The position numbers and the translations under genes were made by a program. From contig DAOSAR010000001.1 in assembly GCA_035360455.1 (NCBI GenBank), positions 3,328 through 67,327 on the forward strand: DNA of 64,000 nucleotides. The letters are read 5' to 3'. Shown here piece after piece: positions 1-13,020 of this stretch. Positions within the stretch are counted from its first letter, which is position 1; each line of letters starts with the position of its first letter. The notes under the pieces are model-generated. The model searched no databases. It worked only from the letters and a program-made list of their open reading frames with translations, and had not been told where the DNA came from. This DNA is from Candidatus Pacearchaeota archaeon. GTDB taxonomy: Bacteria; Patescibacteriota; Minisyncoccia; Minisyncoccales; GCA-002788555.

Positions 1-1297
1 TTCCATAAGCAATGTTTTCTTTAACTGTGCCGGAAAAAAGCATTGCTTTTTGAGAAACGTACCCAATACGCGCTCGCAAGTCTTTTTGTTTCATATCACG
101 CACATCTACATCATCAACTAAAACCTGTCCTTCTGTAACATCATAAAAACGAGGAATTAAGTTCAAAATAGTAGACTTACCGCTTCCAGTGCTGCCAATA
201 AAAGCAGTGGTCTGACTAGGAAGAGCGACAAAAGAGATATTATGCAAAACTGGTTCAGCAGCTCCCGGATATGCAAAAGTAACATTTTTAAACTCAACCT
301 TGCCACCACGCCTAGGAGCCTTAACGGGTTTTATTGGGTCTTTTATTTGCACATCGGTCTCTAATACTTCTTCAATTCTATCAACTGAAACAGAAGCTCT
401 TGGAATAGCAATAAAGATTACAGATATCATTAAAAAAGCGGAAACTGCCTGAATTGAATATTGCATAAATGCTAACATATTTCCAACTTGAAGATTGCCT
501 AGCTCAATTTGGTGAGCGCCTAGCCAGACAATAGCTATCATCATAAAATTCATTATAAGCATCATAGCTGGCTGAAGGAGCATTAGTAAACGATTGACAA
601 AAAGATTAAGCCTCGTAAGATCTTCATTTACTTTGTTAAATTTTTCTTCTTCGTGTTTTTCTTTATTAAAAGCCTTTATTACGCGCAAACCGGTAAGAAT
701 TTCTCTTGTCACCAAGTTTAATTTATCTATTAATTTTTGAAGCCAGGCAAATTTTGGAATTACCATCTTAAAAAGCAAGGTAATTATAGCAATTAAGGCA
801 ACAACGGCAGCTCCCATAATCCAAGTCATTGATGGAGCTAATTGATAAGCTTTTAGTGTAGCAAGTACGCCTATTAAAGGAGCCATAATAGCCAATCGAA
901 AAAGCATTGTAAGCACCATTTGAATTTGCTGAACATCGTTTGTGGTACGAGTGATAAGAGAAGCAGTTGAGAATTTATTAAATTCAACAAGTGAAAAATT
1001 TTCTACCTTGGTAAATACTGCATCTCTTAAATTCTTCGCAAATCCCGCCCCAATCCTCGAAGACAAATAATTTACACCTACCGTAGCTAGTCCTCCGCCA
1101 ATAGCAATTAAGATCATAATCAAACCATTCTGTAAAATTACCTTAGTATTCTTGCCAAGTATTCCTTGGTTAATAATTTTTGCCATAAAATCCGGTAAGG
1201 CAAGTGTTGCTGAGGCTTGAAAATATATAAAAACGGCCATTAAAATAAGTGGCCAAATATACGGAGAAAGATATTTTAGAATTTTTGTTCCTTTCAT
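1..1297 (-). CDS. ABC exporter, fused permease/ATPase (MsbA/MdlB-like); C-terminus runs off the window
   Basis: Not in the ORF track (no stop in window). Own translation from ATG at 1297: MKGTKILKYLSPYIWPLILMAVF..., a TM-rich exporter core, then KVEFKNVTFAYPG...FIGSTGSGKSTILNLI (Walker A)...IGYVSQKAMLFSGTVKENIAYG. Confidence 0.85.
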   Translation of the reverse strand, partial: MKGTKILKYLSPYIWPLILMAVFIYFQASATLALPDFMAKIINQGILGKNTKVILQNGLIMILIAIGGGLATVGVNYLSSRIGAGFAKNLRDAVFTKVENFSLVEFNKFSTASLITRTTNDVQQIQMVLTMLFRLAIMAPLIGVLATLKAYQLAPSMTWIMGAAVVALIAIITLLFKMVIPKFAWLQKLIDKLNLVTREILTGLRVIKAFNKEKHEEEKFNKVNEDLTRLNLFVNRLLMLLQPAMMLIMNFMMIAIVWLGAHQIELGNLQVGNMLAFMQYSIQAVSAFLMISVIFIAIPRASVSVDRIEEVLETDVQIKDPIKPVKAPRRGGKVEFKNVTFAYPGAAEPVLHNISFVALPSQTTAFIGSTGSGKSTILNLIPRFYDVTEGQVLVDDVDVRDMKQKDLRARIGYVSQKAMLFSGTVKENIAYG

Positions 1298-1430
1298 TAT
1301 AATTAAAATAGCCAATAATTATAATGGAAAATCCTTTCTTGGTCAATATATTGGGGCAACAATACACACTTTTTTATGCTTTTTGGCTATCTTTTTTAGA
1401 AAACACGAATTCTTCCCTAGAAAGGGTTCC

Positions 1431-1466
1431 AAAATAAAAAACAGGAGTTTTAAAATTCCTGTTTTG
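1431..1466 (-). terminator. Rho-independent terminator-like hairpin downstream of aspS
   Basis: Minus strand reads AACAGGAattttaaaacTCCTGTT followed by TTTTTATTTT. A near-identical hairpin is at 9931..9960. Confidence 0.5.
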
Positions 1467-1651
1467 GTAGACTCTGCTCAACCAACGTTATTAAGAAGAT
1501 GTTTAACAGGAAAGAGGGGTTAAGAAATGAATTTGAGGCCATCACTATTCTCTAGATAAGCACTATATAAAAGAGATGATTTTCCTTTGTCAAATTTTTG
1601 AAATCTGAGAGAAACCACTTTAATGCTTGTTGGAAAAAATGTTAACATAAA

Positions 1652-3043
1652 TTATTTTTGAATATTTATTTTTAATTCTTTGAGCTGTTCCTTTCCAACT
1701 TCGGATGGAGCATTCATCATAAGATCTCTTCCCTCTCCTGTTTTTGGAAAAGTAATAACTTCACGAATATTGGGTTCGTTTTCAAGAAGCATCATTAAGC
1801 GATCAAATCCCCAAGCAATACCTCCATGAGGAGGAGCACCTGATTCCAATGCTTTAATCATATGTCCAAAATCTTTTTTGATTTTTTCTTTGGTATAACC
1901 CATTATTTCAAATACAGAAATAAGAGCTTCTGGTTTGTGATTTCTTATACTTCCTCCAGCTATCTCATAACCATTAAGCACTAAATCATATTGGGTTGTA
2001 ATAATATCTTCTATGTTTCTCTTGTCCATGAGTAAATTCATATACTCTTTTTTGGGAGCTGAAAAGGGATTATGCGTAAATGTCCACTTATCATTATCAT
2101 CTTTTTCAAAAAATGGAAAGTCAGTGACCCAACAAAAAGCAAGTAAATTCTCATCATTTTTATTTTTTCTTAAATCGGGCTTATCGCTCTTGTGCATTTC
2201 CATTGCCTCTTTAAAAGTAATGCGTGGAAATGGTATTTGCTGGATAACTTTTTGCGGATAGCACTTTTTTATTGTCTCAATAATTAATTCTTCATTTAAT
2301 CGCATCACCTCTTTCTCTTCTACAAAGCTCATTTCCATGTCTAATTGCGTAAATTCCGGCTGTCTGTCGCCTCTTGAATCTTCATCTCTAAAGCATCTAG
2401 CAAATTGAAAATACCTTTCAAACCCTGCGCACATTAAAAGCTGTTTGTATTGCTGAGGAGATTGTGGTAGGGCATAAAATTTCCCCGGCTCTAGTCTTGA
2501 AGGAACAATATAATCACGAGAACCCTCTGGTGTTGATTTTGTTAGACACGGAGTTTCTATTTCTACAAAACCCTTTTTGTTTAAAATTTCTCTCATACAT
2601 AATATCGTTTTGTGCCTATCACGAATATTTTTTTGCATCCTTTCGCGTCGCAAATCAATATAGCGATATTTAAGTCTTGCCTCTTCGTTAATATCTTTTC
2701 CATCGCCAGAAATATCAAAAGGTAGCGATGTAGATGTATTAAGAATAGACAACGATAAGGCCTCTACTTCAAGTTCACCATTTAATTCTGTTTTTTTAAC
2801 CATTTTTTCTGGTCTTAGATTTACTTTTCCTTCGATTTCTACAATCCACTCAGGCCTACATTTATTTGCAAACGAATGGACTTCTTTGTGCTTTGGTAAA
2901 ATTAATATTTGAGCTTTTCCAGTTGCATCTCTTAGAACTAAAAAAATCAATTTCCCATGATCACGCCGCGCATCTACCCAACCGTTTATTTTCACTTCTT
3001 TTCCTATGTGTTTTTTTAGATCTTTTATATATGTTCTTTGCAT
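1652..3043 (-). CDS. aspS: Aspartyl-tRNA synthetase, bacterial-type core but short (463 aa)
   Basis: FYALPQSPQQYKQLLMCAGFERYFQFARCFRDEDSRGDRQPEFTQLDMEMSF (class II motif 2 region), GGSIRNH, GGIAWGFDRLMMLL (motif 3). Confidence 0.92.
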   Translation of the reverse strand: MQRTYIKDLKKHIGKEVKINGWVDARRDHGKLIFLVLRDATGKAQILILPKHKEVHSFANKCRPEWIVEIEGKVNLRPEKMVKKTELNGELEVEALSLSILNTSTSLPFDISGDGKDINEEARLKYRYIDLRRERMQKNIRDRHKTILCMREILNKKGFVEIETPCLTKSTPEGSRDYIVPSRLEPGKFYALPQSPQQYKQLLMCAGFERYFQFARCFRDEDSRGDRQPEFTQLDMEMSFVEEKEVMRLNEELIIETIKKCYPQKVIQQIPFPRITFKEAMEMHKSDKPDLRKNKNDENLLAFCWVTDFPFFEKDDNDKWTFTHNPFSAPKKEYMNLLMDKRNIEDIITTQYDLVLNGYEIAGGSIRNHKPEALISVFEIMGYTKEKIKKDFGHMIKALESGAPPHGGIAWGFDRLMMLLENEPNIREVITFPKTGEGRDLMMNAPSEVGKEQLKELKINIQK

Positions 3044-3270
3044 AGATATAAAAATATTTAATAACGTTTAAAATAAGTCTGTTATCTTTTTATGTATTCT
3101 TATAAAGTTACAATGTCTTGTTTGGCTCTATCCTTCTAAGGTTCTAGGCAAATATTCAAAAATGTTTTAAATTAAGTAACATTGTGAACGGTGTCATAAA
3201 AATAACTCAACAGCAAACTGAGTATATTTATATCCCAGGTTTAAATTTATAACAATAATATTTTATCACA

Positions 3271-3378
3271 TTTTACCCTACCCCTCAACTCACTATATCT
3301 CAGATGGGGGGAATAAGCGAGGTTGGGATCTTTACAGATAGTTCTCCTGCACAAAATTTGAAAAATATAAGAACCTCG
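3271..3378. repeat. Conserved intergenic element, copy 1 (TTTACC-N16-TATATC core plus about 70 nt)
   Basis: TTTACCctacccctcaactcacTATATCtcagatgggg...gcacaaaatttgaaaaatataagaacc aligns with 10073..10183. It lies directly 3' of the stop of ORF 3392..3610. Confidence 0.6.
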
Positions 3379-3391
3379 CTTTTATGTACCT

Positions 3392-3610
3392 TTATAATTC
3401 TTTATAGCTCTTTTCAAAAATATCTTTTTTTTCAACAGGAAGTTCAATTTCAATAGTAGTGCCTCCTATATATTCATTATTTTTTATTTTTACTTTTCCT
3501 CCACACTCTTCTACTACCTTTATATCTTCTTTTAAATCTCGTTTCTTTTTTAAAATAGTAAGTTTGTTTTTAATAAAAACAAATGGTTTCATATAGAATT
3601 TCATATACAA
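3392..3610 (-). pseudogene. Small ORF, possible C-terminal remnant of a histidine-kinase ATPase domain
   Basis: GGKVKIKNNEYIGGTTIEIELPV resembles the G2-box/C-terminal strand of the adjacent kinase (NGKIWAESQGKGKGSTFYVELPV). The N-terminal half has no kinase similarity. Confidence 0.35.
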
Positions 3611-3635
3611 CTTTGTTTTATTAAACTTTTTTTAT

Positions 3636-5291
3636 TTATTTTACGGGTAGCTCAACATAGAAGGTGGAACCCTTACCTTTGCCTTGGGATTCTGCCCAGA
3701 TTTTGCCATTGTGGGCTTTAACAATTTCTGAGGCAAAGTAGAGGCCTATGCCAACTCCGGAAGGGTTGGTGGAAACTGCATCTTTGGATCTTTCGAATAC
3801 TTGAAAGAGTTTTTCTTTTTCTTTTGGGGTCATACCCATGCCTGTATCTTGAACAATAGTTAGAATAGTTCTTGAGTTGTTGTTGTGCTGTACACTTATT
3901 GTAACTCCACCTTCTTTTGTGTATTTTAGAGCATTGTCAACAAGATTTAAGATAACTTCTCTTAGTTTTTGGGAATCAGCTGTTATTTTGGGTAGGGGGT
4001 GTTTGGGTTTGTTGAATTTAAGGTAGAGATTGTATTTTTGGGCTTCGGGCTGGAATTCATTAACTACTTCTTGGATAATATCTTCTAACTGAACGTTGTC
4101 TTGAAAACTAAATTGAAGTTTGCCTGTTTGGAGTTTGTTGAGATCTAAAAGATCATTTACTAAGTTTATTTCTTTTTCGTTTGATCTTTTAACTTCTTCG
4201 ATGAACTCTCTTGCTTTGCCTTGTACTTTGCCGTAGTTACCAGATAGGGCTAGTTCTAAATATCCTTTCATACTGGAGAGAGGGGTTCTGAGTTGATGGG
4301 AAGCAAGGCTGAGGAACATTGTTTTAGTTTCATCTAACCTTTTGTACTCGTTAGCTACTTTTTCTGCTTTTTTTCTTAGGGCTCTTTCTCTGATAGCTAA
4401 CTTTTCAGCTTCTTCTCTTTTTTTCTCTTCTTCGTGAGAGTAGTTTATAAGCTGGTGACCAAGAAAACAGAAAAAAAGAAAGATAGCTAAGCTTGATATT
4501 CTCCAGGTAAGAGTAGGAGCTAAGAATACTTGGATTAGCAATAATATTCCCATTACTCCTACCAAAAGATCAGTTAAAATTACCCTAACTCCAAAAAGTT
4601 GTTTTGCTATTATTGCATAAGCAGTAAAACCTACAAAAAAGATAGAAGAATAGTTACCAAAACGATAATAGATGTCTGAACCAGTAAGAAGAGGAAAAAT
4701 AATGTTAAATACTATGCTAAATAAAGCAAAAATTCCTATCCCCACAAGAAAGTACTGAAGTTGCTTCTTTTCTTGCGCAGAAAGTTTTTTGTACCCTTTT
4801 AAAATTATAAATAAGCAAAAACCCAAAAGGAAAATAATATATGGAAAAAAACAAAAATAATATAATGGCCCGTAAATCAAGTCAAAACTTCCATCTAGGT
4901 GTATAAAAATATTTTTTATTCCAAAAGATGTAAACAAAAATAAAAGGAAAATAAAGAAAGAAATATAAAAAATAATTTTGAAAATATCTTTTTTGAGTAC
5001 AGGAAAAATTTCATAGAAATAAGTTAAAATAAAGAAAAAAATAAAAGTTGCTGAAAGTAAACTACTACTAACAGCTATTTTACTAAAAAGGAGAGAAAGA
5101 GATGGATTTGTCAATGGGAAAAATTCAGAAACATAGGCACTAATAATCCAAAGAATTATTGATAAAGAGAAATAGAAGAAAAATCGATATTTCTGTTTTT
5201 TTGAATTTTTCAAAAAAACCACCAATCCTAAGAAAAAATTTCCTAAAGAGATTATTATTACAAGAATTGTTTCCCAAGTTCCTAATATCAT
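3636..5291 (-). CDS. Sensor histidine kinase with a large polytopic membrane sensor region
   Basis: About 280 aa of TM helices, a coiled coil, H-box SHQLRTPLSSMKGY, N-box LVDNALKYT, G1 DTGMGM, G2 GVGIGL. Confidence 0.88.
   Translation of the reverse strand: MILGTWETILVIIISLGNFFLGLVVFLKNSKKQKYRFFFYFSLSIILWIISAYVSEFFPLTNPSLSLLFSKIAVSSSLLSATFIFFFILTYFYEIFPVLKKDIFKIIFYISFFIFLLFLFTSFGIKNIFIHLDGSFDLIYGPLYYFCFFPYIIFLLGFCLFIILKGYKKLSAQEKKQLQYFLVGIGIFALFSIVFNIIFPLLTGSDIYYRFGNYSSIFFVGFTAYAIIAKQLFGVRVILTDLLVGVMGILLLIQVFLAPTLTWRISSLAIFLFFCFLGHQLINYSHEEEKKREEAEKLAIRERALRKKAEKVANEYKRLDETKTMFLSLASHQLRTPLSSMKGYLELALSGNYGKVQGKAREFIEEVKRSNEKEINLVNDLLDLNKLQTGKLQFSFQDNVQLEDIIQEVVNEFQPEAQKYNLYLKFNKPKHPLPKITADSQKLREVILNLVDNALKYTKEGGVTISVQHNNNSRTILTIVQDTGMGMTPKEKEKLFQVFERSKDAVSTNPSGVGIGLYFASEIVKAHNGKIWAESQGKGKGSTFYVELPVK
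4287..4560. repeat. 274-bp direct repeat, copy A (last TM, linker and H-box start of the kinase)
   Basis: Aligns without indels to 7633..7906, with about 14 mismatches by hand count (roughly 95% identity). Flanking kinase sequence is much more diverged. Confidence 0.9.
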
Positions 5292-5294
5292 ATT

Positions 5295-6782
5295 TTAAAA
5301 TAAATTTTTAGGTTTCACTTTTTTATTTTCTTCTCCAAATGGTCCTTGTCTAAAAGTGAATATTTTAATTAAGGGATCAACAAATTGTGGAGATTTCTGA
5401 TAAGCATCTTTAAAATCAATATCATTTAACAATGTATTTAAAATTACATCGTGATATTTTTTTATAATTTTATTTTGATTTTTAAAAGATATACCTGGTA
5501 AAGTTTCCAAGTACACAACGAAATGAGGATTATTTTCTTTTTCTTCAATGCCTATTTTAAAATTGTTTATAAAATTTTCCCCTAAAGAATCTATTGCTAT
5601 TTTAACTTGTTCAGGATAAATATTGGCACCAAGGCAAATAACCGCTTGGTCTGTTCTCCCCTTTAAAAATACAAAAGGCCATTTTATTGGTTTTTTCGAA
5701 AATCTATTTTCTTTTAACTCTTCGATTTCGATGTTTTTTTCTATTTCATTAAATTTCTTTACTTCTCCTCTGTCTTTAATTCTATATCTTATAATTGGAA
5801 GTTGGCAAAATTCAAAATTTCTAGTAATTATCAATTCATTATTAATTTCTTCTATATATACTAAAAGAGGAATATATTGGAACACTGAAAAATGTTGTTT
5901 AAATTTAGACGAGTTGTTTAAAAATATTTTTTGAAATAGATTTGAAAATGGGGTAGAAATTGCCATTATACCAGTTTCGCTTGCGCTATACATATCAATT
6001 ATTTCAGATATTAAATTAATATGAAGTTTTTCAGATAAAAAATTTTTAAAATTCCAGGTGAGAGGTTCGCCTGCGCAAAGAGGAATTATTTTATAATCCT
6101 CCCAATTTAATTTTCTTTTATCTCCTTCTTGGATAATTAAACGGAAAAAAGAAGGATAAGTAGAAATTATAACAAAATCATAAAATTTTCCCGTTTCTTC
6201 AAGTAAACCTACTATAGTCTCAGGAGAAAGTCCACACAAGGCAACACTTAATTGATACTTTGAATTTTTTCCAATTTCGATAGAAAAAAGAGTGGCCACA
6301 ATACTAGCATACCAAGTTCCAAGAGCAAATGCATTAATATATAAAACCTTTTTTTCAGAAAAATCTAAAAGATATTCAAGATAAATTTTAATCGATGAAG
6401 GATCGAATTCTTTTTGAAAATGAGATTGGAGCAATGGTTTTCCCGTAGTTCCTCCAGAAGTAGAAAAGATAAAAGGGAATGAAGAAGATGGCTTCGATCT
6501 TTCTTGAAGAGAGTATTGATTTGTATAATTTTCTTTGGTAGTAAGGGGTACATACTTTTTAAAATCATCTATTGTTTTAATCTTGGTATGGTCTTGAATT
6601 TCGTGTTTTTTAAGAAAGTCCCTGTAGGCAGGAACTTTCTCAGCAGCTTCATGAAAGGTTTTTAGAGCAAGATTCTCTCCTTGCTTTTCCCAAAAATCTG
6701 GTTTCATTGAAGTCATAAACCAGATTGCTCTTTTTGGATTGGACATTATGAGGTTTTGCATTATATCAGTAAATTTTGCCAT
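5295..6782 (-). CDS. Adenylate-forming enzyme, phenylacetate-CoA ligase / coenzyme F390 synthetase family (ANL superfamily)
   Basis: FSTSGGTTGKP (P-loop-like AMP motif), YSASETG, IRYRIKDRG, LKGRTDQAVICLGANIYPEQV. Same motif order as PaaK. Confidence 0.72.
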   Translation of the reverse strand: MAKFTDIMQNLIMSNPKRAIWFMTSMKPDFWEKQGENLALKTFHEAAEKVPAYRDFLKKHEIQDHTKIKTIDDFKKYVPLTTKENYTNQYSLQERSKPSSSFPFIFSTSGGTTGKPLLQSHFQKEFDPSSIKIYLEYLLDFSEKKVLYINAFALGTWYASIVATLFSIEIGKNSKYQLSVALCGLSPETIVGLLEETGKFYDFVIISTYPSFFRLIIQEGDKRKLNWEDYKIIPLCAGEPLTWNFKNFLSEKLHINLISEIIDMYSASETGIMAISTPFSNLFQKIFLNNSSKFKQHFSVFQYIPLLVYIEEINNELIITRNFEFCQLPIIRYRIKDRGEVKKFNEIEKNIEIEELKENRFSKKPIKWPFVFLKGRTDQAVICLGANIYPEQVKIAIDSLGENFINNFKIGIEEKENNPHFVVYLETLPGISFKNQNKIIKKYHDVILNTLLNDIDFKDAYQKSPQFVDPLIKIFTFRQGPFGEENKKVKPKNLF

Positions 6783-6801
6783 AGATTTATTTATTATTAA
6801 A

Positions 6802-7584
6802 TTATACCTCTTCCCACAAATCTAAAAATATGGGTTGGGGAGCTTTTTTAAGTGGTTGACCTGAAAGCCACTTTACTATTCCATTAACAACTATTGAGGA
6901 AGTAAGATAAGTAGTAGCGCCAAGCTGAGGACCTGATAGTTCAGAAAGATTTTTTTGACCCATTTTTTTGTAAAACTGTAAAAGATCGGCTGGAAAGGTC
7001 GAGAAAGTATTTTGAAGAAGTTTTAAATAAAATCTATTGTCGCGATAAGTTTCTTCGCCTACAATTTCTCTTAATTTTGGAGAATCAGGGGTAAAAACTA
7101 AAACATAACCTCCCCAAGCAATATTTAAAGGGAAAAAAACTGGCTTTCCTGTATCTTGAGAGTAATCATTAACAAAATATAAAATTTCTTCTGGATCAGC
7201 CATATTTACTACTACATCTGATTTATCTATTAGTTCTTTGGCTAATTTTTTGCTTCTTAAAAAAATAGGATAATACTCAACATTAGCTTTTGGATTTATT
7301 TCTTTTATCATTGAAGCAAGGGCCTCAGCTTTGTTTTTTCCTATGTGTTTATATCTAAAAGCTTGACGGTTAAGATTACTAATATCTACCTTGTCTCCAT
7401 CAATTAAGACAAAGTTCATAAAACCGGTTCTGGCAGCTAAAACTCCAATTTGAGCTCCAAGGCCACAACCCAACAGCATAATTTTGCATTTTTTAATTTT
7501 CTCTTGAAGCTTTTTGGGGATAATGAATTTGTGTCTTAAAACTAAATCTTTATAATTTAAGTTTGGTTTAGAATTTTTTGCCAT
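6802..7584 (-). CDS. E1-like adenylyltransferase, ThiF/MoeB/HesA family (260 aa, no CxxC zinc motifs)
   Basis: KIMLLGCGLGAQIGVLAARTG (Rossmann GxGxxG-like), LIDGDKVDISNLNRQ, KNKAEALASMIKEINP. Confidence 0.75.
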   Translation of the reverse strand: MAKNSKPNLNYKDLVLRHKFIIPKKLQEKIKKCKIMLLGCGLGAQIGVLAARTGFMNFVLIDGDKVDISNLNRQAFRYKHIGKNKAEALASMIKEINPKANVEYYPIFLRSKKLAKELIDKSDVVVNMADPEEILYFVNDYSQDTGKPVFFPLNIAWGGYVLVFTPDSPKLREIVGEETYRDNRFYLKLLQNTFSTFPADLLQFYKKMGQKNLSELSGPQLGATTYLTSSIVVNGIVKWLSGQPLKKAPQPIFLDLWEEV

Positions 7585-7611
7585 ATTATTAATTATTATT
7601 TTACGCTCTTT

Positions 7612-8598
7612 TTAATAAGAATTGCAAGAAACTCTGAGTTGATGGGAGGCAAGGTTGAGGAACATTGTTTTAGTTTGGTCTAAACTCTTGTACTCGTTAG
7701 CTACTTTTTCTGCTTTTTTTCTTAGGGCTCTTTCTCTGATCGCTAACTTCTCAGCTTCCTCTCTTTTTTTCTCTTCTTCGTGAGAGTAGCTTATAAGCTG
7801 GTGACCAAGAAAACAGAAAAAAAGAAAGATAGCTAAGCTTGATATTCTCCAGGTAAGAGTGGGAGCTAAAAATACTTGGATTAGCAATAATATTCCCATA
7901 ATTCCTACTAACATTTCTGTCAGAATAACCTTGATGTTAAAGAGATGATATTTGAGAATGGCAAAGGCAATGATTAGAGGGTAAAGAAATATTACAAAGT
8001 TTCCATAAGGATATAGTTCAAATCCATACCATTGAGGAAGATTAAAAAGACCGCCTATAGCAGCTATTCCTAAGGCTAAAATAAAATAACCAATCTGTTT
8101 TTTCTTTTCTCCTGTTAGGTGGAAATAATTTTTAATTAATGTTCCAAAAGTGATAACAACCAAGGTTAATCCCCAAACAATATTTAAATTAGCTACTATT
8201 CCTGCCTGCGGCCAATAAGAATAAAAAGAATAAGTCTTAAGCTTTGAAATAAAGAAGGGTGTGAATATCAAAATTATTATTAAAAAACTTATTGAATACA
8301 ACAAAATTAAACTTTTTTTTCTTCTTCCTTCTAAATTTAAAAGAATTAAACCAAGATGATAAAGAAATACTGATGAAAAAATTGAACCGACCATTAATAA
8401 TCTAAGAAAAAATAGACTTTTTTCTTCATTTTGAACTGCTTGCCAAAATCCATAATTTAACTGCCAAAAAGATAATGCCAAGCTAAACAAAAAGAAAATT
8501 TGATTTTCTTTTTTACTTTTATTCCTGAAATAAACAAAAATACCTAAAATTAAAATTAAAAAACAATTTATAAATCCTGAAAAAGCGAGAATACTCAT
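7612..8598 (-). CDS. Truncated sensor kinase paralog: TM sensor, linker and H-box start only, no catalytic domain
   Basis: A diverged polytopic N-terminus, then about 90 aa near-identical to the 551-aa kinase, ending ...LASHQLRVSCNSY*. Its start overlaps the methyltransferase stop (ATGA). Confidence 0.7.
   Translation of the reverse strand: MSILAFSGFINCFLILILGIFVYFRNKSKKENQIFFLFSLALSFWQLNYGFWQAVQNEEKSLFFLRLLMVGSIFSSVFLYHLGLILLNLEGRRKKSLILLYSISFLIIILIFTPFFISKLKTYSFYSYWPQAGIVANLNIVWGLTLVVITFGTLIKNYFHLTGEKKKQIGYFILALGIAAIGGLFNLPQWYGFELYPYGNFVIFLYPLIIAFAILKYHLFNIKVILTEMLVGIMGILLLIQVFLAPTLTWRISSLAIFLFFCFLGHQLISYSHEEEKKREEAEKLAIRERALRKKAEKVANEYKSLDQTKTMFLNLASHQLRVSCNSY
7633..7906. repeat. 274-bp direct repeat, copy B
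   Basis: See 4287..4560. Homology begins 21 nt after the stop codon side of the truncated ORF (tctgagttgatggga...). Confidence 0.9.
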
Positions 8599-9392
8599 AA
8601 TGGTTTGTTAACTTTGTTTACTAAAACTTGTTTTCCAAAGCTGATTTTCCATTTTGAATTTTGAAAACCAATTTGAATTAATAAATTTTCGTATTCTTCT
8701 TCGCTAAGAAATGTATACTCTTCGACTGGTGTAAAAAATTTTATCATTTTAATTGCAAAATATGGTAAAAAACATTTTTGTTTTATCCATTGACATGGGT
8801 TTAATAGATAAATTGAAGCAAGCAAAGCTCCTGTTAAACGACTAACATCTTTTTTGGGGGTGCTCCATATTAATACTCCACCGGGTTTTAAAATTCTATA
8901 TATCTCTTGAAAGATTACTTTCAGTGCATTTTTGCCTTTTTGTCCTTGGGATTCTATAATATACGTTATAACTTTACTCGATACAATTCCATCAAAATAG
9001 TTATCAGGAAATGGTAGTTTTTGAGAAAGATCAATATGTTGTAGTTTTATAGAAGAGTTGCCTAGTTCTTGGAGTCTTTTTTTAGCAGGTTCTAAATAAA
9101 GATCTCCTGCTATAATTTCTACTTCTCCTTTTGATTTTTCCAAGATTAGTTCTGTAACAGGAAGAGATCCACAACCAAGATCTAACCATTTTTGACCTTT
9201 TTGAGGATTAATAAATTCATTAATTACTTTTAATTCATTTTGATAATGCGGAAGATTTAAGAAAGCATCTCTATATTTGCTTATCATTAATTCTGCATAT
9301 TCTTTCCAAAACTCCCTTTCTTCTTCTTGAATTTTGTTTAAATCCTCTTCTCTTGACACGTTTTTTTTGTTTTGATAAGATTCTTGTGCCAT
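8595..9392 (-). CDS. Class I SAM-dependent methyltransferase
   Basis: WLDLGCGSLPVT (motif I), IIAGDL (post-I), FDGIVSS, LKPGGVLIWSTP. Confidence 0.75.
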   Translation of the reverse strand: MAQESYQNKKNVSREEDLNKIQEEEREFWKEYAELMISKYRDAFLNLPHYQNELKVINEFINPQKGQKWLDLGCGSLPVTELILEKSKGEVEIIAGDLYLEPAKKRLQELGNSSIKLQHIDLSQKLPFPDNYFDGIVSSKVITYIIESQGQKGKNALKVIFQEIYRILKPGGVLIWSTPKKDVSRLTGALLASIYLLNPCQWIKQKCFLPYFAIKMIKFFTPVEEYTFLSEEEYENLLIQIGFQNSKWKISFGKQVLVNKVNKPL

Positions 9393-9403
9393 ATATAAGT
9401 GGT

Positions 9404-9570
9404 AAGACAGCTTTCTTCATTTAAGTCTTTATTGGTTTTTGAATTTATATATATTTATCTATATAAAACAGAACAGAAGTTCTGTTTTATATATTTATTC
9501 CTTACCTTATTTTTTATTAATATTAACTATTAAGCTCAAAAACCTCAACAAAATAAAAGAAAGCTGTCTT
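9404..9570. repeat. MITE-like nested inverted repeat in the operon upstream region
   Basis: Perfect 14-bp terminal inverted repeat AAGACAGCTTTCTT (9404..9417) / AAGAAAGCTGTCTT (9557..9570). It encloses a perfect 12-bp hairpin ATAAAACAGAAC-agaa-GTTCTGTTTTAT (9462..9490). Confidence 0.6.
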
Positions 9571-9835
9571 TTATTTTAATTAGGTTAACCTTTGTGTTTA
9601 TTTTATACTCTTTGAGTGAAGATTGCAAAAAAATATTTAAAACCGACACTTTAAGAATTAAGAAGTTATTAAGTTCAAGAATTTAACGCAACATTATGGT
9701 AGTATACCATAAAGTAATAAGAAGCGTTAAATTCTATAAAAACATATCATCGTCTAAGTTTTATTAAATTAATAAATTTAATAAAGTTCAAATCTCTTTA
9801 TTAAAATGCAGACCGAAAATCAACTTTTCATTAAT

Positions 9836-9906
9836 TTATTTTCTCACTTAGCTTTGAATTAAATTAACCCAATTATGCCAGGCGTCTGTATTTTGTGGTT
9901 TATCAT
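9836..9906 (-). pseudogene. Fragment of a paralog of the 12142..12867 gene (last ~17 codons only)
   Basis: 9836..9883 matches 12142..12189 with 3 mismatches in 48 nt. It translates YDKPQNTDAWHNWVNLIQS* versus ...STNAWHNWINLIQSQVRK*. Upstream homology is lost and stops appear. Confidence 0.6.
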
Positions 9907-9930
9907 AGTTTCTTTAAAAACTTCAAAATG

Positions 9931-9960
9931 AAAAAACAGGATTTTTGAATCCTGTTTTTT
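9931..9960. terminator. Symmetric (bidirectional-looking) terminator hairpin
   Basis: AAAAAACAGGAtttttgaATCCTGTTTTTT, with A-run and T-run on either side. Confidence 0.55.
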
Positions 9961-10072
9961 AGTAACTCCCGCAATGGGACAATTTCAGAATGCTTAAATG
10001 GTCAGATTCAATACAATGTCCTGAGATAATGATAAAACAAATACAAGAACTATTGCAGGTTGTTTAAAATGT

Positions 10073-10183
10073 ATTTACCCCACCTTTCAACTCACTATTT
10101 CTCAGGTGGGGGTGGGAGGTAAAGTTGAGGTTCTTTGAGAAAGTGTATATGGTACTCGTACGCAATTTTTGAAAAATAACAGG
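10073..10183. repeat. Conserved intergenic element, copy 2
   Basis: TTTACCccacctttcaactcacTATTTCtcaggtggggg...cgcaatttttgaaaaataacagg. Contains a perfect 8-bp hairpin CCCCACCT-N18-AGGTGGGG. Confidence 0.6.
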
Positions 10184-10187
10184 AGGG

Positions 10188-10224
10188 TTTACCCTACTCC
10201 TCTACTCACTATATTTTCTAAGGG
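10188..10224. repeat. Conserved intergenic element, copy 3 (core only)
   Basis: TTTACCctactcctctactcacTATATTttctaaggg. It ends 1 nt before the stop codon of ORF 10226..10765. Confidence 0.55.
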
Positions 10225-10225
10225 A

Positions 10226-10765
10226 TCAATATTTTACTTTTTCCCAATCTGTATTTAAAATACAACCCTCTATGCATTCTTCCCTAGTTGAATAACCCTT
10301 AGTTGAAAAATCTATAGTTATAGTTGGAAAATCCTTCCAATATTTCCAATATGACCAAACCCCTTCTCCTTGTTGTGTAATTTCATAAGTGCATCGTTTT
10401 TTACAATCATTAACTTTTGCAACGTGATTAGAAATTATTATACTCCCTGTTACAATAATGGCTATAATAATTAACCAAAACCACCATTTTTTCCAGACTG
10501 GACTTTTCTCAACTTTTTCTCTATGTTGAAACTCCCAAATCCATTTATGAAAGTAATTTATAACTAAAGCTACTATTGCTGAAAAAGAAATTAAAGTAAA
10601 AAACATTCCAAATATTTCCCCTACTGAAGCCTCATCTTCATTTAGGCTTATAATAGTTATAACCGTCATTAAAACACTAATAATAGCAAAAACAGCAAAT
10701 TTAATTAAAAATTCTCTTTTAAAATTAAACTTAATATTAGATTTTTGTATTGGTTCTTTTTCCAT
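10226..10765 (-). CDS. Hypothetical membrane protein with a C-terminal 4-Cys extracytoplasmic domain
   Basis: Three predicted TM helices, including KKWWFWLIIIAIIVTG (the same WWFWL anchor motif as ORF 19797..20339). The tail has C..C...C..C. Confidence 0.5.
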   Translation of the reverse strand: MEKEPIQKSNIKFNFKREFLIKFAVFAIISVLMTVITIISLNEDEASVGEIFGMFFTLISFSAIVALVINYFHKWIWEFQHREKVEKSPVWKKWWFWLIIIAIIVTGSIIISNHVAKVNDCKKRCTYEITQQGEGVWSYWKYWKDFPTITIDFSTKGYSTREECIEGCILNTDWEKVKY

Positions 10766-11000
10766 AATTTTTAATTTTTTATTATAAATAGTGGTATCTT
10801 TTTATATTCTCTTAATTTATTAATAATTTTTTAATTATTTAAATTCTTCATTTTTTGGGTTTATCAAGTTTTTTGATTCTTGTATTGTATTGTATTATTC
10901 TCTTCAAAATAATTTACTATCCATAAAAAGATTTTTTTTATTATATTCTTTGCTTTTTTGAATTTGATCTTGGCTCATTTTTTTTCTTAATTTCTATATT

Positions 11001-11957
11001 TTATTTTAAAAGATTTTTATATTGTTTATTTTTTTGCCTTTTGAGAATTAAACTTGCAATTAAAAAACAAATTCTAGTTGCTCCTAATGCCCAAGAAGAA
11101 ATAGGAATGTTATTTACCATTGCTAATAATGCCGAAGTTAAAGTTGGCTTGGCGGTTTCTTCCTCAGGAAAAAATTGAGATTCATTAGAAATCGTTGTAG
11201 GTTCTTCTGGATTCTCTAAAGTTGGCTCAGTAACCTTTTTTTCGGGCAGAGATTGAAATTCATTAGAAGCTGTTGTTGGCTTTTCTGGATTCTCGGTAGA
11301 ATTTTCTATCTTTTGTTCTGGTTCTGAAATTGATTCTATTTGTTGAGTCTGTGGTTTCGCTTCTGGTTGAGAAACAATTTCGGAAGTTCGTTCTTGGGTT
11401 ACTTCTGGAGTTTGTTTTGTCTGAGGAGTTGGTGAAACAGAGTTTAAAGACGAATTTATTTCTGGTAATGTTGATGGTGAAGGTGTGTTTATATCTGGCG
11501 TGTAAGTATAATTAGTTGGAGGAGTATATGGAATGGATGGATAATCATTTATCCTTTCAACACTAGAAACAAGACAATTTTCATTAGAATCAAAAAGGTA
11601 GATTTCATCACCCATGCTTAAGAATCCCCCATCATCTATATTAATATATTGATTTTTATATTGCCGCATACTGAAGCATCCGATGCCATATTTAACAAGA
11701 TATTTATTGGTTCCATATTCATTTTTGAGTATAACTTCTCTTTTATTATCAACTACTGAATCAACAAAATATTTTTGAAGATTAACTTTTTTAGGAACAT
11801 TACCAACCTTACAAGTGTTTGTTTGGCCAAAGCTATTAATAATAGTATCTCCAAACATTGGTGAGATAAGTGTATCAATATAAATATATTGCCCTTCGAA
11901 AAAATCACTGCTATAGCAGTCATAGTTATAATCAATAATAATATTGTGAAATTCCAT
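11001..11957 (-). CDS. Surface-protein-like ORF: globular N-domain, P/T/E/Q-rich low-complexity repeats, C-terminal TM plus basic tail
   Basis: Internal repeat ENPEKPTTASNEFQSLPEKK / ENPEEPTTISNESQFFPEEE. C-terminus ICFLIASLILKRQKNKQYK. No signal peptide in this frame (see 11932..12105). Confidence 0.55.
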   Translation of the reverse strand: MEFHNIIIDYNYDCYSSDFFEGQYIYIDTLISPMFGDTIINSFGQTNTCKVGNVPKKVNLQKYFVDSVVDNKREVILKNEYGTNKYLVKYGIGCFSMRQYKNQYINIDDGGFLSMGDEIYLFDSNENCLVSSVERINDYPSIPYTPPTNYTYTPDINTPSPSTLPEINSSLNSVSPTPQTKQTPEVTQERTSEIVSQPEAKPQTQQIESISEPEQKIENSTENPEKPTTASNEFQSLPEKKVTEPTLENPEEPTTISNESQFFPEEETAKPTLTSALLAMVNNIPISSWALGATRICFLIASLILKRQKNKQYKNLLK

Positions 11958-12105
11958 CAGTTATTAATAAACTTCGAAAACCGAACTTTTCCTCTACTAA
12001 AAAAGCTTTCAAATTTGAAGCCGAAACAAAATTAGCCATTAGAAATATGGATATTAAAAAAGATAAAATAAATATTCTTTTAAATTTTTGTTTAGTTTTG
12101 TCCAT
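11932..12105 (-). CDS. 57-codon ORF encoding only a signal peptide; probably the frameshifted 5' end of 11001..11957
   Basis: Own translation: MDKTKQKFKRIFILSFLISIFLMANFVSASNLKAFLVEEKFGFRSLLITDGISQYYY*. It overlaps the downstream ORF start by 26 nt in another frame. Confidence 0.45.
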   Translation of the reverse strand: MDKTKQKFKRIFILSFLISIFLMANFVSASNLKAFLVEEKFGFRSLLITDGISQYYY

Positions 12106-12141
12106 TGTGATCGAATTTTTTATTTCTTAAGATTACCGGCT

Positions 12142-12867
12142 TTATTTTCTCACTTGGCTTTGGATTAAATTAATCCAATTATGCCAGGCATTAGTTGATT
12201 CAAGATTATCCCAACCTTCTTGAGTGTTTAAATCTATATTATCTTTTTCGATTGTAGTTTGGAGGTCGTTGTAATATTTAGAGATGGTTTCAAAACTTTG
12301 AACAAAGGTTTGTTCTTCTGGGGTTAAGTTATCTTTATTTACTGGATAGTATCTTTGAACTAATGACCAGGACTGAGCAGTTGTGGCATAAGCAGTACTT
12401 TCAAGTTCTAAAATACTGTTTTGCCAGTGTTCTTTTGAAGTATCTTTATATTGAGTGTTTCTTTCCCATTTATGAGTAAGTTCATGATATAAGATAGGCA
12501 GCCAGATTTCACTTTTAATATTCAAATATGGGTTGATATATAAAATATCACTGACCATATCGTATTGGGCAGGATGATCTTCTGGGTAGGTTTTTGCTTC
12601 GGGAATAAGTTCTGTGATATCTCCTAGAGGAATTTCTCCTTTTTTAAGTTCTTCCAATACATAGTTATGAACTTCCAATAACCCTGATGGAATCTCTGGA
12701 GCATTATCTACCATATTTACCGCTTCATTTAATCTTTCAAGTACAATCTTTTGATTAGTTTTCTTTGAGCCTCCTAAAAGAAAACCTGCAAAGAAAAGGG
12801 CAACAATAATCAAAATGCCAATAATAAGGAAAAGTTTATTCTTTCCCCGTTTTTTGGGGTTTAACAT
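12142..12867 (-). CDS. Membrane-anchored HExxH protein (putative zinc metallopeptidase-like)
   Basis: N-terminal anchor KLFLIIGILIIVALFFAGFLLGG. The motif LPILYHELTHKW (HELTH) is the only catalytic-type signature. Confidence 0.45.
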   Translation of the reverse strand: MLNPKKRGKNKLFLIIGILIIVALFFAGFLLGGSKKTNQKIVLERLNEAVNMVDNAPEIPSGLLEVHNYVLEELKKGEIPLGDITELIPEAKTYPEDHPAQYDMVSDILYINPYLNIKSEIWLPILYHELTHKWERNTQYKDTSKEHWQNSILELESTAYATTAQSWSLVQRYYPVNKDNLTPEEQTFVQSFETISKYYNDLQTTIEKDNIDLNTQEGWDNLESTNAWHNWINLIQSQVRK

Positions 12868-13020
12868 ATTGTCGCAATGGATTTTATTTGAACGGCGTCC
12901 AATAGAAAAGGACTTCCGTTCTTATGACAATTCCTTTCGGAACTGTCTATCGTCTTTTGACGATAACCATTGCGACAAAAAAACAGAACGGAAGTCCGTC
13001 TCTATGTCGCAATGGATTTT
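12868..13020 (-). promoter_or_regulatory. Structured 5' leader with mutually exclusive helices
   Basis: TGTCGCAATGGATTTT at 12870..12885 and 13005..13020, with the inverted copy CCATTGCGACA at 12967..12977. Perfect 13-bp pair 12910..12922 / 12985..12997. Hairpins at 12948..12965 and about 12924..12946. Confidence 0.5.

Follow-up and report, generated by a model that had tools for sequence, protein, structure and literature searches.

A repeated kinase segment around an E1-like/ligase/sensor unit as a probable recombination scar in a mosaic family of 7TM sensor kinases in Patescibacteria

In a 64,000-nucleotide (nt) stretch of a contig from an uncultured, Paceibacteria-like member of the Patescibacteria (DAOSAR010000001.1, positions 3,328 to 67,327; here called the window), a segment of sensor histidine kinase sequence, R, is present twice, once on either side of genes for a ThiF/E1-like adenylyltransferase, an adenylate-forming ligase and the sensor half of a second kinase. 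How did a fragment of one kinase gene come to stand in front of a cassette that ends in a complete kinase, and are the two segments the scar of a past event or the joints of a swappable sensor cassette, both of which the initial annotation had considered? We favor, at a probability of roughly 0.6, the view that the repeats are a recombination scar in a mosaic family of seven-transmembrane (7TM) sensor kinases: a unit made of the E1-like gene, the ligase gene and one sensor (sensor A) was inserted in a methyltransferase-linked kinase gene with another sensor (sensor B), and R was duplicated.

A repeat search of the window returned one direct-repeat family, at 4287-4586 and 7633-7932, with 92% identity over 300 nt and an offset of 3346. 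Within it lies a core of high identity (276 nt without gaps, 14 mismatches, 94.9%, longest identical run 70 nt); elsewhere in the window no further copies of R or of the kinase core were found. The repeat had been described before as gapless with about 14 mismatches, which is exact, but its ends (4560 and 7906) had been set 2 nt short. As defined by self-alignment of the window, the two copies are as follows.

7633..7908, minus strand: R1, the upstream repeat copy
4287..4562, minus strand: R2, the downstream repeat copy

Both copies have the same direct orientation, register and reading frame, as had been noted. In the sense of the genes, the 3' end of the repeat is sharp at 4287/7633, where identity drops from above 90% to about 30% within one 30-nt window; on the 5' side it decays gradually (55-70% for about 80 nt), and this fading is ordinary paralogue similarity. 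R encodes two hydrophobic segments (by hydropathy), a charged coiled coil and the first helix, or His box, of the dimerization and histidine phosphotransfer (DHp) domain up to H-Q-L-R. The coiled coil and His box had been recognized correctly, but not the second hydrophobic segment, since only the last transmembrane (TM) helix had been counted. Outside R, the two sensors are 30-32% identical in protein sequence, in agreement with the distant similarity reported earlier.

The minus strand carries every gene discussed at this locus, and these are, in order, the following open reading frames (ORFs) and the junction between them.

8595..9392, minus strand: S-adenosylmethionine-dependent methyltransferase, 265 aa, first gene of the module (Pfam Methyltransf_11/25/23)
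7612..8598, minus strand: truncated sensor-B ORF, 328 aa (HisKA_7TM, two more hydrophobic segments, coiled coil, His box to HQLR, then VSCNSY and stop)
7585..7632, minus strand: non-homologous junction "tail" (6 codons with the stop that ends them, followed by the ThiF-like gene's leader; repeat identity is lost abruptly at 7633)
6802..7584, minus strand: ThiF/E1-like adenylyltransferase, 260 aa, adenylation domain only (Pfam ThiF 1.9e-35, 122.6 bits versus a cut-off of 28.1)
5295..6782, minus strand: distant PaaK-like adenylate-forming ligase, 495 aa (PaaK models 1e-11 to 1e-12; PDB 4r1l 1.8e-6)
3636..5291, minus strand: full-length kinase HK-A, 551 aa (Pfam), made of sensor A (4563-5291), R2 (4287-4562) and core (3636-4286)

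A 72-aa ORF (3392-3610) and the gene for aspartyl-tRNA synthetase (AspRS) follow. Successive genes from the methyltransferase to HK-A are spaced by -4, 27, 19 and 3 nt, which indicates that they form one operon; the methyltransferase stop and the sensor-B start overlap by 4 nt.

The 328-aa ORF has neither the second DHp helix nor the ATPase domain. Its terminus, ...ASHQLRVSCNSY*, places the stop 6 codons past HQLR and 9 codons past the His; the initial annotation had rightly seen a truncation just past the phospho-acceptor but had counted the 6 codons from the His itself. Pfam recognizes only HisKA_7TM in this protein (2.5e-16), with no HisKA or HATPase_c match. A class I sensor histidine kinase has a complete DHp domain and a catalytic domain, both of which are missing here, and judged by its sequence the ORF is not a kinase but either a fragment of one or a sensor-only protein. 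HK-A possesses both and belongs to this class, with HisKA (4.8e-14), HATPase_c (2.3e-24) and HisKA_7TM (1.1e-8) all above the Pfam cut-off. HK-A is, moreover, chimeric. Taken in the order sensor, R and core, its identity to the intact sensor-B kinase described below is 30%, 93% and 88%; to sensor-A orthologues of other species it is 49-59%, 48-61% and 45-66%. HK-A thus carries sensor A on a transmitter half of the sensor-B family type, so that the ThiF-ligase-sensor-A block uses the transmitter half of the methyltransferase-kinase family.

The uninterrupted sensor-B gene exists on other contigs. The 90% cluster of the 328-aa ORF also contains full-length proteins, including P0159 and P0160 (546 aa), encoded at L019 (GCA_029553115.1), L020 (JGI 3300025631) and L021 (ERZ27257400). 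At these three loci the methyltransferase gene is directly followed by sensor B-R-core, and ThiF, ligase and sensor A are absent; L037 (14.5 kb) is organized likewise, but its core is frameshifted. Compared with the window, the four contigs (8-19 kb) share 94% identity across methyltransferase and sensor B and 88% across the core. In a further protein, P0121 (L002; 538 aa, on a 1.9-kb contig from JGI 3300019243), a single R connects sensor B with the core of the window itself; this core has 0 differences in 651 positions, and 40 nt of the window's downstream sequence follow it. The crossover can be placed in an identical stretch of 53 nt in R (between columns 228 and 282 of the alignment). The earlier prediction that sensor B could be fused in frame to the core at 3636-4286 is therefore borne out by an exact product in L002 and by 546-aa intact kinases on four contigs. 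The one-repeat, insert-free state is seen with different flanks in L019-21 and L037 and, for 40 nt, with the same flanks in the single small contig L002; together with same-register direct repeats, such a one-repeat allele marks a repeat-flanked indel. We lean slightly toward the view that the intact and the interrupted gene are alternative states in different strains rather than two loci of one genome. None of the listed samples showed both forms.

Variation among strains is confined to the duplicated module. In the nine cassette-bearing contigs, we observed 0 single-nucleotide polymorphisms in the 3,070 nt between the repeats and 0 in the outer flanks; the 139 variable sites fall without exception (139/139) in the stretch from the methyltransferase through sensor B to R1 or in R2-core. 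Nearly all variant alleles are those of the intact ("S-type") copy, and they occur in contiguous strain-specific tracts, which indicates gene conversion. The tracts with S-type alleles are as follows.

9336-9257 and 7975-7870: conversion tracts in the window
8529-8482, 8206-8164 and 4116-3795: conversion tracts in L006
from 4041 onward: conversion tract in L008

Exchange also connects the two repeats: R1 of L006 has R2-type bases at four sites, and R2 of L004 and L008 has R1-type bases at its 3' end. Depending on the strain, R1 and R2 differ from each other at 14, 11 or 7 sites, compared with 18-25 sites between them and the R of other modules; this marks them as sister copies between which sequence is still exchanged. 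These counts, and mosaics that differ between strains, agree well with the recent duplication or gene conversion proposed at the outset. G+C content at third codon positions is 0.30-0.36 in R and core (3636-4562, 7633-7908), 0.17-0.21 in the adjoining sensor, methyltransferase, ThiF and ligase sequences and 0.25 in AspRS, a rise that would fit frequent, GC-biased conversion of the recombining segment. In a second species, an A-type and a B-type kinase (P0224 versus P0164) are 41% identical in the sensor, 75% in R and 80% in the core. Concerted evolution of the transmitter half is thus seen in two species, with mosaic tracts and with R/core identities of 93/88% within the species versus 55-63% across species. 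The population itself appears uniform: at the 90% cluster level AspRS has 1 sequence variant, the neighboring ABC transporter 1 and sigma-70 2 (one of them on a single 1.2-kb contig), which suggests one near-clonal species.

The inserted unit has relatives of its own. A genome scan for related loci, based on a ligase alignment of 8 sequences, showed that ThiF, ligase and a sensor-A-type kinase adjoin in six other Patescibacteria loci. Five of these have the order ThiF-ligase-kinase (L022, L023, L025, L026, L038), and in L024 the kinase lies beside ThiF on the opposite strand. A single-domain response regulator follows the kinase in three of the six; no response regulator adjoins the block in the window, and tblastn with the regulator of a related operon found none in the whole 64 kb. 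Neither a methyltransferase nor sensor B lies upstream in any of the six (0/6). The methyltransferase and sensor-B-type kinase instead form a separate widespread pair (L003, L015/L040, L016, L019-21, L037). This operon of E1-like protein, ligase and 7TM kinase is conserved in diverse Patescibacteria and uncharacterized; its cluster in L038 contains an extra Ppx-GppA gene. All NCBIfam matches of the ThiF-like protein were below their cut-offs, and since no equivalog threshold was reached, no specific function was assigned to it. The ligase scored 42-46 bits with the PaaK models (cut-offs 646-700) and 15.9 bits with AMP-binding (cut-off 29.9), and its match to PDB 4r1l, a phenylacetate-CoA ligase, covers just 90 residues (1.8e-6). 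By these scores it is a distant relative of PaaK-like ANL enzymes and not a member of the PaaK equivalog. Two further ideas about the unit were tried and rejected: no small ubiquitin-like ORF upstream of ThiF, which the junction might have destroyed, is conserved in the related operons, and a phage or other mobile element found no support from IMG/VR, which holds no ligase relatives, or from PADLOC, which gave only generic E1 homology.

The 48-nt tail at 7585-7632 is where the unit meets the truncated sensor. It contains a predicted promoter-like TTGCAA-N18-TAAAAT at 7627..7598. As a remnant of a deleted kinase 3' end the tail was rejected, with the 3' ends of the W, S and C cores scoring like shuffles (112-302 of 500 reached the score), and as a leader of the module's own methyltransferase it showed no similarity. 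These results bear on an origin that we regard as unlikely, in which a complete methyltransferase-sensor-B kinase module and a complete ThiF-ligase-sensor-A kinase operon once stood in tandem, the downstream linker and core were converted to the upstream type, and the upstream gene, its core now redundant, afterwards lost everything past the His box. Sister copies R1 and R2 would be expected from such a history, and the concerted evolution of transmitter halves in the second species makes conversion of the whole R-core plausible. It requires, however, at least two extra events, the tail is without significant similarity to kinase 3' ends, and the methyltransferase-kinase module is upstream of none of the six related ThiF-ligase-kinase loci. 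Furthermore, an arbitrary deletion does not predict that the H-x-L-R break with its promoter-like leader recurs in L003 and L039.

This recurrence was seen in two lineages besides that of the window (L003; L039/L041), in which a truncated sensor-B-type ORF is stacked before another unit and cut at the same H-x-L-R codon; the window locus likewise holds one such partial cassette. The L003 ORF (317 aa) ends in AAHDLRNSSSSFIEI* and is followed by a module leader and the start of another methyltransferase gene; the contig ends inside that gene, so that no downstream kinase is seen. In L039/L041, His-box coding sequence to H-D-L-R comes after the 310-aa ORF, and beyond it lie a leader, a methyltransferase and a multi-TM sensor unlike those upstream, and a kinase in which linker and His box occur again, forming a 153-nt direct repeat (83-100% identity) that ends at the same codon. 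A predicted promoter-like leader comes after H-x-L-R in all three cases (in L039, TTCTTGC..TAAAAT), and the window tail aligned to the L039 junction leader with a score of 27, which 18 of 1000 shuffles reached. The shared break point may have been passed on with a cassette or may stem from a bias, either mechanistic or selective. The upstream methyltransferase of L039 is in three pieces, which shows that such stacks can decay. A screen of about 1.8 billion representative proteins for further sensors terminating at the His box added one likely case, P0437; the other candidates were mostly contig-end partials or members of a different sensor-only family.

Might these stacks be in use as a cassette system? 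Units running from promoter to His box (methyltransferase and sensor, or E1, ligase and sensor) would then be stacked before one core and excised, captured or exchanged through crossovers in R, which would let a cell line alter the sensor that drives its kinase; truncated sensors would be kept as a reserve or as co-sensors that pair with the full kinase by way of the identical coiled coil. The same architecture in three lineages would speak for this, as would the linker and His box repeated in the downstream kinase of both the window and L039/L041, and a full-length form of the truncated sensor exists in each lineage (P0121/P0159, P0161, P0163). Near-identical sensors also occur with unrelated cores (P0159 versus P0161: sensor 86%, core 38%), and the truncated sensors are under purifying selection, with ratios of nonsynonymous to synonymous substitutions (dN/dS) of 0.14 for the window versus L003, 0.28 for the window versus L039 and 0.41 for L003 versus L039. 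We nevertheless judge this system quite improbable. The full-length partners P0161 and P0163 are not simple R x R recombination products (in P0163 the linker is of another kind and shorter), the evidence is confounded by breaks and chimeras of contigs at R, and between direct repeats a switch is a one-way loss unless the excised circle is recaptured. There is also no dedicated recombinase, and the cassette-bearing contigs all have one arrangement.

A related question is whether the switching of sensors coupled to loss of the cassette, which the initial annotation had envisaged, takes place in this population. Nothing that we found shows it: no recombinase or transposase is encoded within 10 kb on either side, nine of nine cassette-bearing contigs are alike, and L002 is possibly a chimera. 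Programmed rearrangements have a dedicated recombinase or inverted sites beside the cassettes, neither of which is present. Given the lack of a nearby recombinase, the direct orientation of the repeats and the agreement of the cassette-bearing contigs, we do not call the locus a programmed switch.

The truncated sensor could, alternatively, have a function of its own. The 328-aa ORF is kept intact at its full 328 aa in every cassette-bearing assembly and in 3 further sequence variants. Its dN/dS in comparison with the intact copy is 0.15, similar to that of functional neighbors (methyltransferase 0.14, core 0.15). This constraint fits a functional protein, a recent truncation or refreshing conversion from intact copies. 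Under the first of these, the truncated sensor B would be a working sensor-only subunit that pairs with HK-A through the near-identical coiled coil and first DHp helix and modulates it or adds a second signal, and selection for pairing would help to keep R1 like R2. Such a role, which we think unlikely, is compatible with the other readings. It would suit an ORF with translational coupling to the methyltransferase and a place in the HK-A operon, and kinase-less 7TM and coiled-coil proteins do exist in these bacteria (P0128, P0134, P0140, P0340, P0442). One DHp helix, on the other hand, cannot complete a four-helix bundle, conversion from the intact copy can explain the low dN/dS, and the upstream module of L039 is decaying (methyltransferase in three fragments, higher dN/dS). 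The R1-specific changes, too, are clustered beside the His box, and 3 of 6 are non-synonymous. A family of about 335-350 aa shares the 7TM domain and ends in a coiled coil with the motif G-R-E-[LV]-R-M-x-E-L-K, with no kinase domains (P0128, P0134, P0140, P0340, P0391, P0426, P0442, P0454); these proteins are natural sensor-only relatives.

We compared the locus across assemblies. The ligase protein is unchanged on 15 contigs. The methyltransferase, 328-aa ORF, ThiF, ligase and kinase genes were found in identical order at six loci from at least six independent assemblies, with 99.3-100% identity to the window: L004 (ERZ27257413), L005 (the window's own contig), L006 (GCA_964650335.1), L007 (GCA_029553185.1), L009 (ERZ27257437) and L010 (JGI 3300009711). 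These represent different samples and different assemblers. The window's metagenome contig in ENA is ERZ795046 NODE_33 (165 kb, 32% G+C). Two diverged copies in the same arrangement were present in SPAdes, MEGAHIT and NCBI metagenome-assembled genome (MAG) contigs of up to 172-188 kb, and the arrangement was single across nine of nine cassette-bearing contigs. Chance is thereby excluded, and so is assembly collapse, a concern raised in the initial annotation: both copies are always present and always diverged, in contigs from several assemblers. A mis-join of two kinase genes that created the repeat or the truncation appears extremely improbable to us. Many contigs of this population do break or switch haplotype inside R and core, and in several samples they stop inside the core or overlap there by exactly k = 141. 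The same junctions with up to 14 diverged sites, however, recur in contigs of 83-188 kb from different assemblers and samples and in three NCBI MAGs, and R1 and R2, being non-identical, are not collapsed copies.

How the arrangement would have arisen by insertion can be outlined as follows. A fragment comprising promoter, ThiF, ligase and sensor A, normally part of a separate operon with its own core and response regulator, would have entered a sensor B-R-core gene through two joints, a homologous one in R and a non-homologous one just past the His box. The mechanism could have been Campbell-type integration of a circle with an R-like segment or homology-facilitated illegitimate recombination. 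Such an insertion would duplicate R, strand sensor B from its catalytic half and place sensor A on the resident transmitter. Conversion would afterwards keep R1, R2 and other family members alike, and the intact sensor-B copy would patch the flanks. If R1 and R2 recombined by a RecA-type crossover, 3,346 bp would be lost and an intact sensor-B kinase restored; read the other way, the structure is what a circle with one R would leave on integrating into that gene. The anatomy of the locus, the chimeric make-up of HK-A, the uninterrupted gene and the conversion tracts are established; we infer that the event was an insertion and not a deletion, that it took one of the two routes named, and that any present-day switching is merely occasional and unprogrammed.

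Several points weigh against the insertion scenario. The direction of the event is not proven, and no outgroup was found with an empty site and the same flanks on both sides. The intact sensor-B gene has flanks different from those of the window on both sides (sigma-70 or MurL) and may therefore be a paralogous locus rather than the ancestral allele. L002 combines three haplotypes in one contig of 1.9 kb and could thus be an assembly chimera. The truncated sensor-B ORF shows no relaxed selection and no visible decay, and a plain scar would not be expected to be so constrained unless it is young or refreshed by conversion. Finally, truncation at the same codon in two other lineages is unexplained by a one-off accident.

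The wider module family gives the setting in which an insertion of this kind would have occurred. R is common to at least four variable units, as is the core wherever the contig extends that far.

Unit A: ThiF, ligase, sensor A
Unit B: methyltransferase, sensor B
Unit C: P0129/L034-36
Unit D: L016

Units B, C and D have in common a conserved leader of about 270 nt. The homology boundaries of the module are sharp, starting at about 9601 and ending at 3617 of the window.

9393..9601, minus strand: conserved 5' leader of the methyltransferase-kinase module (93-97% identity to L020, L034, L036, L021 and L016; flanks differ beyond 9601)
3617..3635, minus strand: 3' end of the shared module (S/C-type kinase homology runs 19 nt past the window's stop and ends at 3617)

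Two strong hairpins are found in the leader, just inside the left homology boundary, at 9541-9586 (23-nt arms, no loop) and 9460-9493 (15-bp stem). The same modules occur in varied surroundings.

L037: MurL side, unit B, tRNA/LytR side
L034: MurL side, unit C, sigma-70
L020: 229-aa gene, unit B, sigma-70
L035: unit C, tRNA/LytR

These varied flanks may be due in part to real inter-locus recombination or rearrangement and in part to assembly chimeras. One and the same frameshift splits off the last 72-74 residues of the ATPase domain in the C-type kinase (L034 10001-11657, L035, L036) and in the B-type kinase of L037 (10001-11639); as it appears in contigs from four samples, it is either a pseudogenizing mutation spread by conversion or a recoding site.

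Around the locus, the genes within 10 kb on each side are thyX, inositol phosphatase, IF-2, RbfA, NrnA, hypothetical proteins, AspRS and ABC transporters, and an Rfam scan of window positions 1-13000 gave no structured RNA. Next to AspRS lies the following ORF.

3392..3610, minus strand: possible degenerate C-terminal remnant of another kinase, 72 aa (..GGKVKIKNNEYIGGTTIEIELP..)

It is kept in all contigs bearing this AspRS gene. A third kinase remnant had been suspected here, but we could not substantiate it: the match to the kinase C-terminus is weak (37% identity over 35 aa, E = 0.25), and a Pfam search of the 72-aa ORF returned no match. On the other side of the module, the gap at 9393-10225 (833 nt) is unusually long for so compact a genome. 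A 49-nt direct repeat with 94% identity has one copy in this gap (9835-9883) and the other at the 3' end of a 241-aa ORF (12141-12189), and it is kept in all related contigs. The C-terminal half of a 318-aa ORF at 11001-11957 is long, rich in Pro, Thr and Glu and of low complexity; the protein, which has no Pfam match and carries a terminal hydrophobic segment, could be a surface protein. NCBI labels MAGs with the same proteins as "Candidatus Pacearchaeota archaeon" and, in other bins, as "Candidatus Paceibacterota bacterium". Bacterial-type two-component kinases, sigma-70 and RbfA indicate that the organism is a bacterium.

The process that we propose is ordinary in kind, consisting of segmental duplication, ectopic gene conversion and two-component domain shuffling. 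Two-component sensor kinases reportedly evolve by domain shuffling and lineage-specific expansion, and here too recombination near the linker yields new sensor/transmitter pairings while paralogues expand within a lineage. Unlike in the usual case, an intermediate is caught, with a duplicated 276-bp segment, a truncated donor, conversion tracts and an uninterrupted counterpart. The tuf and rRNA genes undergo concerted evolution by ectopic gene conversion. The transmitter half resembles them in being closer between paralogues within a species than between orthologues across species, in its mosaic tracts and in its raised third-position G+C content; it differs in that only the 3' half of the gene and the 5' leader are homogenized, the sensor half diverges and one copy is truncated. 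In silent-cassette systems such as Neisseria pilE/pilS and phase-variable hsdS with its truncated hsdS', the variable part is donated by recombination. Our locus is similar in layout only, with partial copies that share conserved segments with one complete expressed gene. Its repeats are direct and not inverted, it has no site-specific recombinase, its partial copy comes first in the operon and is translatable, and its variable part is a signal-sensing domain rather than a surface antigen or specificity subunit. Campbell-type integration and homology-facilitated illegitimate recombination are known routes of insertion. One homologous and one non-homologous joint, with the homologous segment duplicated around the insert, are as in these routes; unlike there, no vector or mobile-element functions are present. 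The homologous arm here comes from within a kinase gene, so that the insert re-uses the 3' half of the host gene in frame.

A search of the literature on HisKA_7TM and on kinase gene conversion found the domain in census papers only and nothing on this arrangement. By that search, the caught intermediate, a foreign E1/ligase/sensor operon taking over a resident transmitter, the break after H-x-L-R in three lineages and a Patescibacteria family with homogenized transmitters and divergent sensors all appear to be new. Sensor/transmitter shuffling is usually inferred from old, finished products, and here it can be followed at nucleotide resolution in near-clonal genomes. The locus also carries a warning, since it is at these repeats that contigs of the population break and mis-join. 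Should the truncated sensors in the stacks be in use, they would represent a new way to diversify signal input; if not, the locus is a clear but ordinary example of mosaic gene-family evolution. Were the units indeed exchanged as cassettes, bacteria with minimal genomes could re-wire what one signaling pathway senses.

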